A stretch of DNA of 49,503 nucleotides from the IMG/VR virus record IMGVR_UViG_3300006100_000010. One strand, given 5' to 3'. A program made the translations under genes and the position numbers. Within the stretch, counting starts at the first letter, position 1; every line of letters starts with the position of its first letter. This document shows positions 23,316 through 28,116 of the stretch, piece after piece. The notes beneath the pieces are model-generated. The model was not told where the DNA came from, searched no databases, and saw only the letters and a list, made by a program, of their open reading frames with translations. Source of the DNA: a virus (lineage: Duplodnaviria; Heunggongvirae; Uroviricota; Caudoviricetes).

Positions 23316-23348
23316 GTGAAACTTAAGTCAAACCTTAAGTATAAATAA
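23316..23348 (+). promoter_or_regulatory. tRNA-array promoter 1: GTGAAACT-N15-GTATAAATAA
   Basis: Identical two boxes and 15-nt spacing at 23316, 27901 and 29434. Confidence 0.75.
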
Positions 23349-23368
23349 CAAAAAACGAAACATCTTCA

Positions 23369-23452
23369 ATGCTATTCAATAAAAATATGATCCTAGTTAT
23401 CGATTTCCAAGTGGAGACGGGGATAGATCGCATTGATAATGACGTGAGTTAA
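23369..23452 (+). CDS. Putative leader peptide 1 (MLFNKNMILVIDFQVETGIDRIDNDVS)
   Basis: Between promoter and terminator; stop lies 22 nt before the hairpin, as in leader 2. The start codon is uncertain. Confidence 0.45.
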   Translation: MLFNKNMILVIDFQVETGIDRIDNDVS

Positions 23453-23474
23453 GAAAAGTTCTAATAAAGAAAAG

Positions 23475-23505
23475 AACCTCAACTCACACCGAGTTGAGGT
23501 TTTTT
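23475..23505 (+). terminator. Terminator/attenuator hairpin upstream of tRNA-Asp
   Basis: AACCTCAACTC-ACACC-GAGTTGAGGTT plus T run. Confidence 0.85.
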
Positions 23506-23513
23506 ATTTTTAT

Positions 23514-23586
23514 GGACCTGGCGCATAACGGCTGGTGTACCCGACTGTCTATCGGTGTTTAGAGGGTTCGACTCCCTTCAGGTCCG
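23514..23586 (+). tRNA. tRNA-Asp(GTC)
   Basis: GGACCTG/CAGGTCC acceptor; loop CTGTCTA; T arm GAGGG-TTCGACT-CCCTT. Confidence 0.88.
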
Positions 23587-23646
23587 CTAAAATACTTCAC
23601 AGCAAAAGTCGTAAGTTCGAATGATAAATAATAAAAAGAAAGTATC

Positions 23647-24327
23647 ATGAAAACTTGCGAAAACTGTGGAAAAGATCACACTGGAGAATACGGAAGTGGT
23701 CGATTTTGTTCTTTGAAATGCTCTAGGGGATTTAGTACTAAAGGTAAGAGAAGTGAAATCAATAAAAAGGTATCAGCTGCTCTTAGCAATAGTGGGAACA
23801 CTCCAGTCAAAAAAAGTTGCAAGTTATGTAAGAATGAATTTGCTGTTGCTTGGAATAAGCGTAGGCAAATGTATTGTTCATCTTCATGCGCAGCAAAAGA
23901 TATTGGTTGGAAAAATAGTCATTCTAAAATCTCAAAGAGCAAGTGGTCTGAAATAAACAAAAGATCTTATGCTTTAGGTAAAAATCGAATTGCTGGTGGA
24001 ACTACCAAGTGGCTCAATTACAAAGACATAAAAGTTCAAGGAACGTATGAACTCGCTGCTTGTAAAAAGCTAGATCTACTTAAAGAAAGAGGTGAAATTT
24101 TTAAATGGGAATATGCAGTAAATCGAATATCCTATATAGGGATCGATAGAAAAAAGCACACATACTTAATTGATTTTACAGTTACACTACCTGATGGAAG
24201 TATTAAGTTCATCGAAGTTAAGGGAAGAGAAACTGATAATGATAAACTAAAGTGGAATGCGGTAAGAGAAGCGGGACATACTCTTGAAGTATGGAGAAAA
24301 TTTGATTTATTATCTAAAGTTCTTTAA
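23647..24327 (+). CDS. Free-standing PD-(D/E)XK (TnsA-like) endonuclease with N-terminal Cys-rich zinc fingers, homing-endonuclease-like
   Basis: YLIDF...FIEVKG catalytic motif; several CxxC/FCSxxC motifs; own GATAAATA promoter; inserted between tRNAs. Confidence 0.75.
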   Translation: MKTCENCGKDHTGEYGSGRFCSLKCSRGFSTKGKRSEINKKVSAALSNSGNTPVKKSCKLCKNEFAVAWNKRRQMYCSSSCAAKDIGWKNSHSKISKSKWSEINKRSYALGKNRIAGGTTKWLNYKDIKVQGTYELAACKKLDLLKERGEIFKWEYAVNRISYIGIDRKKHTYLIDFTVTLPDGSIKFIEVKGRETDNDKLKWNAVREAGHTLEVWRKFDLLSKVL

Positions 24328-24331
24328 AAAT

Positions 24332-24404
24332 GCCGAGATAGCTCAGTTGGTAGAGCGCAACACTCATAATGTTGAGGTAACGGGTTCAAACCCCGTTCTC
24401 GGTA
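24332..24404 (+). tRNA. tRNA-Met(CAT), probably elongator
   Basis: GCCGAGA/TCTCGGT; loop CTCATAA. Confidence 0.88.
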
Positions 24405-24416
24405 CGAAAATAACAT

Positions 24417-24489
24417 CGCGGGATGGAGCAGTTGGTAGCTCGTTGGGCTCATAACCCAAAGGTCATAGGTTCAAGTCCTATTCCCGCAA
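24417..24489 (+). tRNA. Initiator tRNA-fMet(CAT)
   Basis: C1:A72 mismatch; GGG/CCC in anticodon stem. Confidence 0.92.
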
Positions 24490-24492
24490 CTA

Positions 24493-24657
24493 AGTCAGTA
24501 GTAACGTGAGAGTTACTTCGAAATCCATTATCAGGACGGTGTCGGTGGTTCGAATCCATCTCTCCCCACTAAGAAGAAATTCTTAATTTTTAACTTGGGG
24601 AGATAGCTCAGCTGGTAGAGCACGTAAAAGAAAAATCTCTCGCAACTTTCTCTGACT
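24493..24657 (+). ncRNA. Y RNA-like RNA 1 (YrlA-type order: T arm, closed acceptor stem, D arm)
   Basis: AGTCAG-TAGTAAC-GTGAGAGT-TACTTC pairs with CTCTCGC-AACTTTCT-CTGACT; inside are T arm 24544-24560, TCTCCCCA/TGGGGAGA and D arm GCTC..GAGC; near the Ro60 gene. Confidence 0.8.
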
Positions 24658-24696
24658 AATTTTTTAAAAGCTAGGAGAATTTAGTATTATCTACAC

Positions 24697-25074
24697 ATGG
24701 ATAATAATTTAAGAGAACTAAGCAACCAGTTGTTAGCGATGCCAAAACAAATGGCAGACACACAACTCATAATCTTGGAAAAGAGCCAAGAGGCTCAGAA
24801 GATCGAGAACGAGATCTCTGAGATCGAGACTAAACTGAAGATGTCTATAGCAAATAAGCTGGACGAAAGCGGTAAGAAAGTCTACTCAAATGCAGATGCT
24901 AGAGAAGCTGCATTCGTCGAAGCCTGTACTGGTGAGTTTGACCTAATTGAATTAAAGTCAAAACTAGCAGCCATACAAAATCAAATTCAATTGTCAAAGA
25001 TTGCATATGAGAGGGTCGGCAACGAACAAAAGAATCTAAGAATAGTGTTACAACTATTTTCAGAAGCGGAATAA
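24697..25074 (+). CDS. Hypothetical coiled-coil protein
   Basis: 125 aa between Y RNA 1 and the Ro60 gene. Confidence 0.6.
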   Translation: MDNNLRELSNQLLAMPKQMADTQLIILEKSQEAQKIENEISEIETKLKMSIANKLDESGKKVYSNADAREAAFVEACTGEFDLIELKSKLAAIQNQIQLSKIAYERVGNEQKNLRIVLQLFSEAE

Positions 25075-25167
25075 ATTTTTTCAATAAACTTGAAATAGCG
25101 ACAATAAACTTAGTAAGTTTATTAAACTAAATCAAGTTTACCAAATAAAAACCTTGTACTAAAAATT

Positions 25168-27154: not shown

Positions 27155-27163
27155 AAATTTATA

Positions 27164-27294
27164 AAACTGATAGCAATGGATAAGGTTACTTCGAAAATTA
27201 GCTCAGTTGGTTGAGCGTTTATATTCCAATAAAAGGTCATTGGTTCAACTCCAATATTTTCATCCAAACATACCTTACCGATTTTCTTCAGTTT
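27164..27294 (+). ncRNA. Y RNA-like RNA 4 (complete cloverleaf with encoded CCA nested in the stem)
   Basis: AAACTGA-TAGCAAT-GGATAAGGT-TACTTC / ACCTTACC-GATTTTCT-TCAGTTT; inner GAAAAT/ATTTTC acceptor followed by A-T-CCA (27262-27266). Confidence 0.75.
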
Positions 27295-27298
27295 ATTT

Positions 27299-27371
27299 GC
27301 GGAAGTAGCTCATTTGGTAGAGCGATAGCCTTCCAAGCTATAGGCGGCCGGTTCAAGCCCGGTCTTCCGCT
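27299..27371 (+). tRNA. tRNA-Gly(TCC)
   Basis: GCGGAAG/CTTCCGC, U73; loop CTTCCAA. Confidence 0.93.
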
Positions 27372-27412
27372 CTAGATAGTTTTGTACTTTGTTACAAACA
27401 TCAAAATAACAT

Positions 27413-27485
27413 CGTGAGGTAGAGCAGTGGCCAGCTCGTTGGGCTCATAATCCAAAGGTCGTAGGTTCGAATCCTACCCTCGCAA
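27413..27485 (+). tRNA. Second initiator tRNA-fMet(CAT)
   Basis: C1:A72; anticodon stem TTGGG/TCCAA with one G-U. Confidence 0.85.
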
Positions 27486-27539
27486 CAACGGAGAGTAGAC
27501 GTAAGTCTTCTAACAAAGAAGGGGTTTACTCAAAGACAT

Positions 27540-27684
27540 AAATCAGTAGTAACGTGAGAGTTACTTCAATATTTGACTATTAATCAGAAGGTCTGGGTTC
27601 GAATCCCAGTGCGGAGAGCAATCTCAGTATGGTGTAAATGGCAGCATAAAAACGAAAAACCACTCTCGCAACTTTCTCTGATTT
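27540..27684 (+). ncRNA. Y RNA-like RNA 5 (anticodon-like arm ATT, T arm, GCAA-closed acceptor, D arm)
   Basis: AATCAG-TAGTAAC-GTGAGAGT-TACTTC / ACTCTCGC-AACTTTCT-CTGATT; stem almost identical to RNA 1. Confidence 0.78.
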
Positions 27685-27692
27685 TTTTAAAT

Positions 27693-27764
27693 GCCGCGTT
27701 CGTCTATCGGCTAGGACATCTCCCTTTCACGGAGGGAAGAGGGGTTCAACTCCCCTACGCGGTA
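27693..27764 (+). tRNA. tRNA-Glu(TTC)
   Basis: GCCGCGT/ACGCGGT; loop CTTTCAC. Confidence 0.9.
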
Positions 27765-27769
27765 CTAAA

Positions 27770-27883
27770 TTAACTCACGGAGTTCGCTAGCAGATGGTAG
27801 AGATGCAACTACCTGGGTGCAGCGGAGTTGACCAGATCAACATTGACCTATGATTTATCTAAAAAGCGGGCACCGTGAGTTAA
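27770..27883 (+). ncRNA. Unknown structured RNA A
   Basis: Perfect 11-bp closing stem TTAACTCACGG/CCGTGAGTTAA; inner hairpins GGTAG/CTACC, GTTGA/TCAAC, TTCGCT/AGCGGA. Confidence 0.5.
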
Positions 27884-27900
27884 AAATAAAAAACCAAAAA

Positions 27901-27933
27901 GTGAAACTCTATTTGAGTTTGGTGTATAAATAA
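27901..27933 (+). promoter_or_regulatory. tRNA-array promoter 2: GTGAAACT-N15-GTATAAATAA
   Basis: Same boxes and spacing as 23316 and 29434. Confidence 0.75.
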
Positions 27934-27940
27934 TAAAGTA

Positions 27941-28063
27941 ATGAAAAACTATCGTAACATATCAAATCACTCATGCAGCTGGAATCACATTCCAACAGGA
28001 GTGAAGTTTGTGTCTACACTAAAATCAACTGGTGCAGGAAAAAACGAGGTTCGAATAAGTTAA
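27941..28063 (+). CDS. Putative leader peptide 2 (40 aa, MKNYRNISNHSCSWNH...EVRIS)
   Basis: ATG 7 nt after the promoter; stop 22 nt before the terminator; 3' end contains a strand complementary to the terminator. Confidence 0.55.
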   Translation: MKNYRNISNHSCSWNHIPTGVKFVSTLKSTGAGKNEVRIS

Positions 28064-28085
28064 CAGTAAAAATAACTATATAGAG

Positions 28086-28116
28086 AACCTCGAACCACAA
28101 AAGTTCGAGGTTTTTT
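28086..28116 (+). terminator. Terminator/attenuator hairpin upstream of tRNA-Val
   Basis: AACCTCGAAC-CACAAAA-GTTCGAGGTT plus T run. Confidence 0.85.

Follow-up and report, generated by a model that had tools for sequence, protein, structure and literature searches.

Two units preceding tRNA genes

The DNA analysed here, called the window throughout, is a stretch of 49,503 nucleotides (nt) from a virus assigned to the Caudoviricetes (IMG/VR record IMGVR_UViG_3300006100_000010). On its + strand it carries two units of the same geometry, in each of which a promoter is followed by a short open reading frame (ORF) ending AGT-TAA, a spacer of 22 nt, an AACCTC...GAGGTT hairpin with a T-tract and, 11-12 nt further on, a tRNA gene. 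We argue below that these units are probably transcription attenuators governed by ribosomes translating the short ORF. Both had been picked out in an original prediction made by reading the sequence without database searches, and their coordinates and anatomy proved correct to the base when checked against the sequence, ARAGORN and Rfam.

Unit 1 opens with promoter 1 (23313-23348; AAAGTGAAAC, a 17-nt spacer and TATAAATAA), the elements of which are GTGAAAC at 23316-23322 and, after N17, TATAAATA at 23340-23347. Leader ORF 1 (23369-23452) encodes 27 residues, MLFNKNMILVIDFQVETGIDRIDNDVS, with Asp codons at positions 12, 20, 23 and 25 and the end GTG-AGT-TAA. The 22 nt of 23453-23474 separate its stop codon from intrinsic terminator 1 (23475-23511), which has an 11-base pair (bp) stem and a 5-nt loop (AACCTCAACTC/GAGTTGAGGTT, 23475-23501) followed by T6 and then ATTTTT, and a free energy (dG) of -15.9 kcal/mol, or -19.6 kcal/mol with the A/T extension included. 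The first gene past this terminator is tRNA-Asp(GTC) at 23513-23587, identified by ARAGORN and by Rfam (tRNA, 37.7 bits).

Unit 2 repeats this plan with a longer leader. Promoter 2 (27898-27933) has the motif of promoter 1, with GTGAAAC at 27901-27907 and TATAAATA at 27925-27932, and leader ORF 2 (27941-28063) encodes 40 residues, MKNYRNISNHSCSWNHIPTGVKFVSTLKSTGAGKNEVRIS, ending ATA-AGT-TAA. After the 22-nt spacer, intrinsic terminator 2 (28086-28118; dG -13.3 kcal/mol) comprises a 10-bp stem with a 7-nt loop (AACCTCGAAC/GTTCGAGGTT, 28086-28112) and T6, and the first array beyond it (28123-28440, ARAGORN and Rfam) consists of tRNA-Val(TAC), tRNA-Lys(TTT) and tRNA-Lys(CTT), starting at 28123, 28283 and 28368, respectively.

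The 49.5-kb window has three copies of the composite promoter GTGAAAC-N17-TATAAATA, where 0.00 are expected; the third is at 29434, and all three are confined to the tRNA region. The hairpin pattern AACCTC...GAGGTTTTT occurs twice against 0.01 expected. A generic scan of the region for sigma-70 promoters and terminators gives counts not above chance, from which only the two hairpins stand out. Leader ORFs 1 and 2 begin 8-21 nt past the TATAAATA element. A Shine-Dalgarno-like motif precedes only 2 of the 37 long ORFs of the window; given its rarity before the normal genes of this phage, its lack before the leaders is no objection.

The end of each leader ORF is able to pair with the terminator that follows it. 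In unit 1 the last codons together with the initial base of the stop give GTGAGTT (23444-23450), which is exactly complementary to AACTCAC (23481-23487) in the 5' arm and loop of the terminator, and in unit 2 CGAGGTTC (28045-28052, codons 35-38) is the exact complement of GAACCTCG (28085-28092) in the 5' arm. This complementarity, which the original prediction had pointed out, is greater than in shuffled sequences (unit 1, p=0.014; unit 2, p=0.010), and the putative antiterminators so defined span 23444-23487 and 28045-28092, each with an apical helix within the spacer. When the RNA was folded as a nascent transcript, i.e. up to the terminator loop and before the 3' arm is made, the minimum free energy (MFE) structure in both units was exactly the proposed antiterminator, with the 22-nt spacer forming the hairpin tip. 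The dG of antiterminator versus terminator is -11.6 versus -15.9 kcal/mol in unit 1, and -14.4 versus -13.3 kcal/mol in unit 2. Masking the footprint of a ribosome with its A site on the stop codon causes the antiterminator to be lost and the terminator to be restored in these folds.

Complementarity and codon content in related loci

Relatives were collected with the Ro60 gene lying between units 1 and 2 as probe, giving 37 IMG/VR and 60 metagenome loci, 97 in total (cited below by locus number, e.g. L001), with Ro60 protein identities of 27-82%. Among GenBank phages nucleotide searches with the region returned tRNA-level matches only, and tblastn with Ro60 found no GenBank relative above 33% identity. 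The exact promoter pattern of the window has no match in IMG/VR; the motif varies among the relatives, and a related one, GAAAC-N16-17-[GT]ATA[AT]ATAA, precedes their leaders. An automatic screen for strong hairpin plus T-tract terminators no more than 70 nt upstream of a tRNA on the same strand yielded 65 terminators, 59 of them with an ORF of 15-65 codons for amino acids ending within 60 nt upstream, and these 59 elements represent 43 distinct leaders in 24 sequence families. An ORF of this kind, with an ATG start, is present in 46 of the 49 distinct upstream regions, compared with 12.9±2.9 in shuffles. From stop to hairpin the 43 leaders have gaps of 19-50 nt, mostly 20-28 nt, so that the 22-nt spacing, for which conservation in related phages had been envisaged, is instead a trait of this genome.

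Complementarity, on the other hand, was likewise expected to be conserved in related phages and is, each leader family having its own pair of ORF end and terminator arm. In the 50 nt upstream, the longest run complementary to the terminator's own 5' arm has a mean length of 7.0 nt for the pre-tRNA terminators, compared with 4.7 nt in a set of 35 other terminators drawn from this DNA (Mann-Whitney p=1.4e-6), with Z values against shuffles of -2.5 and -0.5, respectively. In nascent folds, upstream sequence takes up 5 nt or more of the 5' arm in 40 of 40 distinct leaders, as against 15 of 31 control terminators. Counted from the stop codon's first base, the median position of the upstream strand is -10.5 to -2.5 nt, within the footprint of a terminating ribosome. 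The pairing sequences themselves vary by family (GATCGAAG:CTTCGATC, ACTCGGG:CCCGAGT, ATCCGGA:TCCGGAT, TTCCAGAG:CTCTGGAA and others). When ORF ends and terminators were swapped among 21 family representatives, own pairs averaged -12.4 kcal/mol and swapped pairs -8.2 kcal/mol (p<=5e-5), and the own terminator was the top partner in 10 of the 21 families, window unit 1 among them. On the strength of these three comparisons we judge the predicted antiterminator to be real.

Direct orthologues of the two window units conform to this picture. Those of unit 2, in L001, L042 and L038, three loci of freshwater origin, keep the promoter and an ORF that begins at the same ATG and stays open. Conservation in all four unit 2 orthologues extends to GAGGTTCGA and the terminator although the ORF ends differ, the gap from stop to hairpin being 24-29 nt (24 nt in L001), and terminator 2 is identical in L001 save for one loop base. 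Orthologous unit 1 leaders precede tRNA-Asp in L001, L032/L041/L042, L038 and L076, where the antiterminator strand (G)AGTTGAG runs across a TGA stop and pairs with CTCAAC(TC). With its TAA stop, the window has the pairing GTGAGTT:AACTCAC in a shifted register that recruits two loop bases, and this shift relative to the orthologues therefore indicates that pairing has been preserved by different means. The unit 1 orthologues also contain a second, mid-ORF copy of the terminator 3'-arm sequence, GTTGAGGT (L001:4975-4990), within the conserved peptide EVGTDR; the nascent fold of L001 prefers this mid-ORF copy as the antiterminator strand, and leader 1 of the window is without it.

The codons of the leaders correspond to the tRNAs encoded behind them. 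In a permutation test, arrays were shuffled among the 21 family representatives and the score was the share of leader codons that the contiguous array serves. The match was 5.23 versus 3.61±0.32 by amino acid and 4.29 versus 2.86±0.29 by codon (p<=5e-5 in each case), frames +1 and +2 of the same nucleotides gave null-level scores, and a separate test on 16 families, with contiguous or whole-unit arrays, had the same outcome. In 18 of 19 families the leader holds every amino acid of its array. The excess is located mid-ORF (0.264 versus 0.171, p=2e-4). The last five codons show none (p=0.47), which is what the geometry leads one to expect, since a stall there would cover the antiterminator strand. 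Synonymous choice favours codons read by the array anticodons under strict wobble (49 of 77 versus 39.9 expected, P=0.02). Unless these ORFs are read by ribosomes, it is difficult to account for a signal confined to a single frame and a single part of the ORF.

Individual leaders illustrate the match. L003:2954 has eleven consecutive cognate codons (ATA TTA CCT TCA TCG TTA AGA CCG TCT ATA AGA) in front of an array of Ser(UGA), Arg(UCU), Pro(UGG), Ile(UAU), Met and Leu(UAA) tRNAs, L013:11967 has TTTSSSTSTSSC before Ser, Ser, Thr and Cys tRNAs, and L050:7164 (...FMPQANAPFAQVGIAKWYNG...) precedes Phe, Pro, Ala, Trp, Gln, Ile, Lys, Asn and Gly tRNAs. All 16 amino acids of a 16-tRNA array are found in the leaders L006:9586 and L053:6514, with Leu, Pro, Asp and Glu only within the last five or six codons, and Ala and Gly are absent from the 51-residue L007:4544 leader, as they are from its array. 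Co-variation of leader and array within families is suggestive, though imperfect, L053:813 having four Pro codons and no tRNA-Pro detected in its unit.

The third promoter copy of the window belongs to unit 3 (29431-29586, + strand), which consists of the promoter (29431-29466) and leader ORF 3 (29491-29586; 31 residues, MKKQAYIRIYRPCQPLAWQLGLSNHNSLSRF) and has orthologues in L001 and L042. In this leader 27 of 30 residues belong to the following array of 19 tRNAs (P=4e-4), and none of the 13 amino acids of that array is missing from it (P=9e-4). Between them, leaders 2 and 3 lack Asp and have just one Glu; the tRNAs for these two amino acids sit in unit 1. In leader 2 the cluster TGVKFVSTLKST (T-G-V-K-F-V-S-T-L-K-S-T), codons 19-30, lies just 5' of the antiterminator strand, and these codons are the last stall positions that would leave CGAGGTTC free.

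Proposed mechanism and alternative explanations

The original prediction was that ribosome-mediated attenuation operates in front of the tRNA arrays, and it gains support from the family-specific pairs of the relatives and from the frame- and position-specific codon match. That units 1 and 2 gate the phage tRNA genes as transcription attenuators worked by ribosomes has, in our estimate, a probability of roughly 0.78. In the assembly of events that we propose, a phage-specific promoter would give a transcript opening with the short leader ORF. An undelayed ribosome would run to the last codons and the stop and cover the strand able to pair with the terminator 5' arm, the terminator hairpin would form, and RNA polymerase would stop 11-12 nt short of the first tRNA. 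A ribosome stalled mid-ORF at the codon of a scarce tRNA would leave the last codons free to pair with the terminator 5' arm, so forming the antiterminator, with the 22-nt spacer as its tip, and polymerase would continue into the tRNA genes. As the mid-ORF codons would be served by the tRNAs past the terminator, each unit would exert negative feedback on its own tRNA supply. Translation of the leader, termination at the hairpin and the direction of the response are what we infer from sequence, and the phage probably makes a tRNA set only when ribosomes run short of those tRNAs. The earlier suggestion that the phage senses slow translation is thereby retained in one part, the antiterminator freed by a stall, and revised in another, as the sensor looks specific to the codons of each array and not general.

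Several observations weigh against this reading. Leader 1 taken alone is weak in codon content: it does have the four Asp codons counted in the original prediction, but at 4 of 26 these are only marginally above the phage background (P=0.058), and D23 and D25 fall inside the ribosome footprint that masks the antiterminator. Only D12 and D20 (plus E16 and G18) are predicted to lie far enough upstream for a stall to leave the antiterminator free. The Val and Lys codons of leader 2, earlier thought suggestive, are not above background, neither Val and Lys (7 of 39) nor Val, Lys, Gly and Thr (13 of 39) being significant, and the weakness of both leaders alone means that the codon case rests on the family. 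There, some of the families in the permutation test are distant orthologues and not fully independent, and cognate codons mostly occur once or twice, not in runs, which makes sensitivity uncertain. The core antiterminator helices are short, at 7-8 bp, and that of unit 1 is weaker than its terminator. No upstream 1:2 anti-antiterminator pairing appears in the MFE folds of either leader, where upstream structure spares the antiterminator strand, and untranslated RNA would therefore read through. Reading TATAAA as the -10 element would leave leader 2 a 5' untranslated region (UTR) of only about 3-5 nt. Lastly, unit 3, which has the best codon match, is without a U-tailed terminator, and leaders may therefore use more than one read-out.

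The weak enrichment in leaders 1 and 2 and the mostly single cognate codons would suit a more general sensor of translation rate or coupling, responding to any slowing of the leading ribosome, be it from global shut-off or ribosome damage, and not to a lack of particular tRNAs, with codon content incidental, as would the shared N-terminus of the leaders (MK in 26 of the 43, often MKNxxNI), which suggests a generic module. From such a sensor, however, one would not expect a leader to match its array in one frame and one part of the ORF, nor a bias among synonymous codons, nor that amino acids missing from the array are missing from the leader too (L007:4544, and save for their ends L006:9586 and L053:6514), and we consider it unlikely. 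Small ORFs often lie between the tRNA genes of phages, as in T5-like tRNA regions, and this counts in favour of the units being independent small genes or RNAs, that is self-contained micro-protein or stable-RNA cassettes whose complementarity has no regulatory role, the tRNAs being transcribed by constitutive leak through the terminator. Partial conservation of the peptides points the same way, as seen in EVGTDR for the unit 1 family and, between the leader 2 sequences of the window and L001, in 7 synonymous versus 5 non-synonymous changes. We nevertheless regard this as very improbable, as it explains neither the complementarity of each family's ORF end to its own partner, nor the position of the complementary strand within the footprint of the terminating ribosome, nor the tracking of the downstream tRNA set by one frame; moreover the 11-12 nt between terminator and tRNA leave no room for a promoter.

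Alternative pairing is by itself silent on what selects the fold, and this could be a protein or tRNA bound to the leader RNA, in a T-box or TRAP-like manner, in place of the ribosome; the regulated tRNAs could in principle bind the leader. Against such a trans-acting factor, Rfam detects at gathering score no family besides tRNA in the window, neither a T-box nor a curated leader family, the leaders are about 100-170 nt long with no conserved specifier or T-box-like motif, and the frame-specific codon signal, gone in the last five codons, points to decoding by the ribosome. There is, we think, scarcely any chance that it sets the fold.

Phage tRNA genes are usually discussed as passive compensation for codon usage or as spares against host tRNA-cleaving defences, and to our knowledge essentially nothing is known of their regulation. 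If ribosome-mediated attenuation does gate them, the phage measures the decoding of specific codons in real time and supplies matching tRNAs on demand, and a switch of the trp/his type can target tRNA genes directly, in a loop that is closed because the sensed molecule is the product. One leader could then roll-call up to 16 different tRNAs. The leaders would also help annotators to set the bounds of tRNA transcription units, and it would become testable when, and for what reason, large phages express their tRNAs. A more far-reaching version of attenuation is conceivable, though we think it doubtful: each tRNA sub-array might be an autonomous, codon-resolved homeostat, its leader polling just the tRNAs that follow and the array being turned on by loss of any one of them, whether through a mismatch of host and phage codon usage or a host anticodon nuclease, so that phage tRNA genes would be an inducible counter-measure and not constitutive cargo, with unit 1 co-inducing the Ro60/Y-RNA module.

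A full-text literature search, outside which most subscription journals lie, turned up no account of phage or cellular tRNA genes being controlled by leader peptides or attenuators. The element would be a known type of switch acting on tRNA genes, and the nearest published systems are the attenuators of amino-acid operons and pheST and the mycobacterial poly-Cys ORFs. Textbook attenuators are trpL, hisL, leuL, thrL, ilvL and pheL, together with the pheST leader pheM. Like these, the window units have a short ORF with regulatory codons near the promoter and an intrinsic terminator ahead of the first regulated gene. This terminator and an antiterminator exclude each other, the 5' strand of the antiterminator being covered by a ribosome at the ORF end, and as in the multivalent ilv and thr leaders several kinds of codon are mixed. 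Amino-acid-operon attenuators, however, regulate biosynthesis or synthetase genes, whereas here the genes are those of tRNAs and what is sensed is what is made. The leaders described here also differ in covering up to 16 amino acids, mostly once or twice each and without runs of a single codon, in showing no evident 1:2 anti-antiterminator, in matching no Rfam leader, and in being phage-borne, with several copies per genome, one per sub-array. The 1:2 hairpin is typical of trp and not universal among attenuators.

The leaderless poly-Cys short ORFs of mycobacteria are cysteine-responsive attenuators (bioRxiv 10.1101/834739). They are reported to be alike in being very short, with little or no 5' UTR, in reporting aminoacyl-tRNA supply and in controlling downstream genes, and unlike in that they respond to a single amino acid and act on operonic protein genes (10.1101/834739). 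Leader 2 and several relatives would similarly have a 5' UTR of only 0-5 nt. T-box riboswitches share with the units a cis-acting leader in which the choice between terminator and antiterminator reports tRNA status. They bind uncharged tRNA directly, are about 200-300 nt long with conserved motifs, need no ORF and control synthetase or amino-acid genes, unlike the shorter leaders found here, in which the signal is specific to the reading frame. As candidates for the window units, a T-box and the curated leader families were rejected because Rfam gives tRNAs only in the window.

A similar cassette is present in the cultured Caulobacter phage phiCbK (JX100813, L099:2341-2570), in a phage lineage and sequence unrelated to the window. 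There an annotated hypothetical protein, gp083, of 45 residues, of which 24 of 44 are Ser, Leu, Pro or Lys, is followed by an annotated terminator and then by tRNA genes in the order Pro-Pro-Lys-Lys-Leu-Leu-Leu-Ser-Ser. This phage offers a cultured system for experiments.

BoxA-like motifs and the surrounding genes

In unit 3 a boxA-like sequence, GTTCTTTGAATA (29673-29684, + strand), stands before the tRNA-Met at 29688, and the predicted consensus fold of the three unit 3 orthologues is a long rod in which the ORF end pairs with the boxA-like region, with a single covarying pair. The boxA-like motif GYTCTTTRA is found directly upstream of window tRNAs at 24320-24330, 29675-29685 and 30110-30120. 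Among the relatives a strict pattern, GTTCTTTGA[AC]ATA, is present past the terminator in 15 of the 23 with spacers of at least 25 nt (e.g. L003:13336-13367 and L013:12107-12147), and the remaining eight mostly have, by eye, close variants such as GCTCTTTGAA. None of the 20 spacers shorter than 25 nt between attenuator terminator and tRNA contains the motif, nor do the 11-12 nt spacers of units 1 and 2. BoxA renders polymerase resistant to termination and involves no sensing of translation. The likeness to boxA/Nus antitermination of rRNA and tRNA operons lies in the motif before some window tRNAs and in the long-spacer relatives, and does not extend to the spacers of units 1 and 2.

Between units 1 and 2 lie an ORF for a TnsA-like endonuclease, two tRNA-Met genes, Y-RNA-like elements, the Ro60 gene, which encodes TROVE and vWA domains, and further tRNAs. 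Terminator scans found no other strong intrinsic terminator on the + strand between 23505 and 28086, so that, barring internal promoters, transcripts reading through unit 1 could extend to Ro60 and the Y RNAs. Going by position only, transcription of Ro60 and Y RNA could thus be switched on with unit 1, as the original prediction had it.

The TnsA-like ORF (23647-24327, a weak TnsA-like/DUF1064 match) follows tRNA-Asp inside the tRNA array, and an HNH endonuclease (28463-28969, a clear match) follows the two tRNA-Lys genes and splits the array of unit 2. In L001 the Asp-Met-Met array is uninterrupted, and the endonuclease ORFs therefore look like mobile insertions. Among the later tRNA genes, 31955-32410 codes for a YqeY-like protein (GatB/YqeY domain, E=2e-36). 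The phage also encodes a sigma-70-family factor with regions 1.2, 2, 3 and 4 (39751-40629), which is a candidate for recognising the GTGAAAC-N17-TATAAATA promoters.

Some tRNA calls in the window are disputed. Rfam and not ARAGORN reports tRNAs at 26903-26966 and 30602-30684, and at 27192-27266 ARAGORN reports a tRNA with a 2-nt anticodon; these tRNA-like elements (26903, 27192 and 30602) lie among the Y-RNA-like repeats around Ro60. In the relatives, tRNAs designated 'Stop', with anticodon TTA, are present in L003, L004 and L048, and tRNAs designated 'SeC', with anticodon TCA, in L005, L045 and L055. As their anticodons would read TAA and TGA stops, respectively, these are possible suppressor tRNAs.

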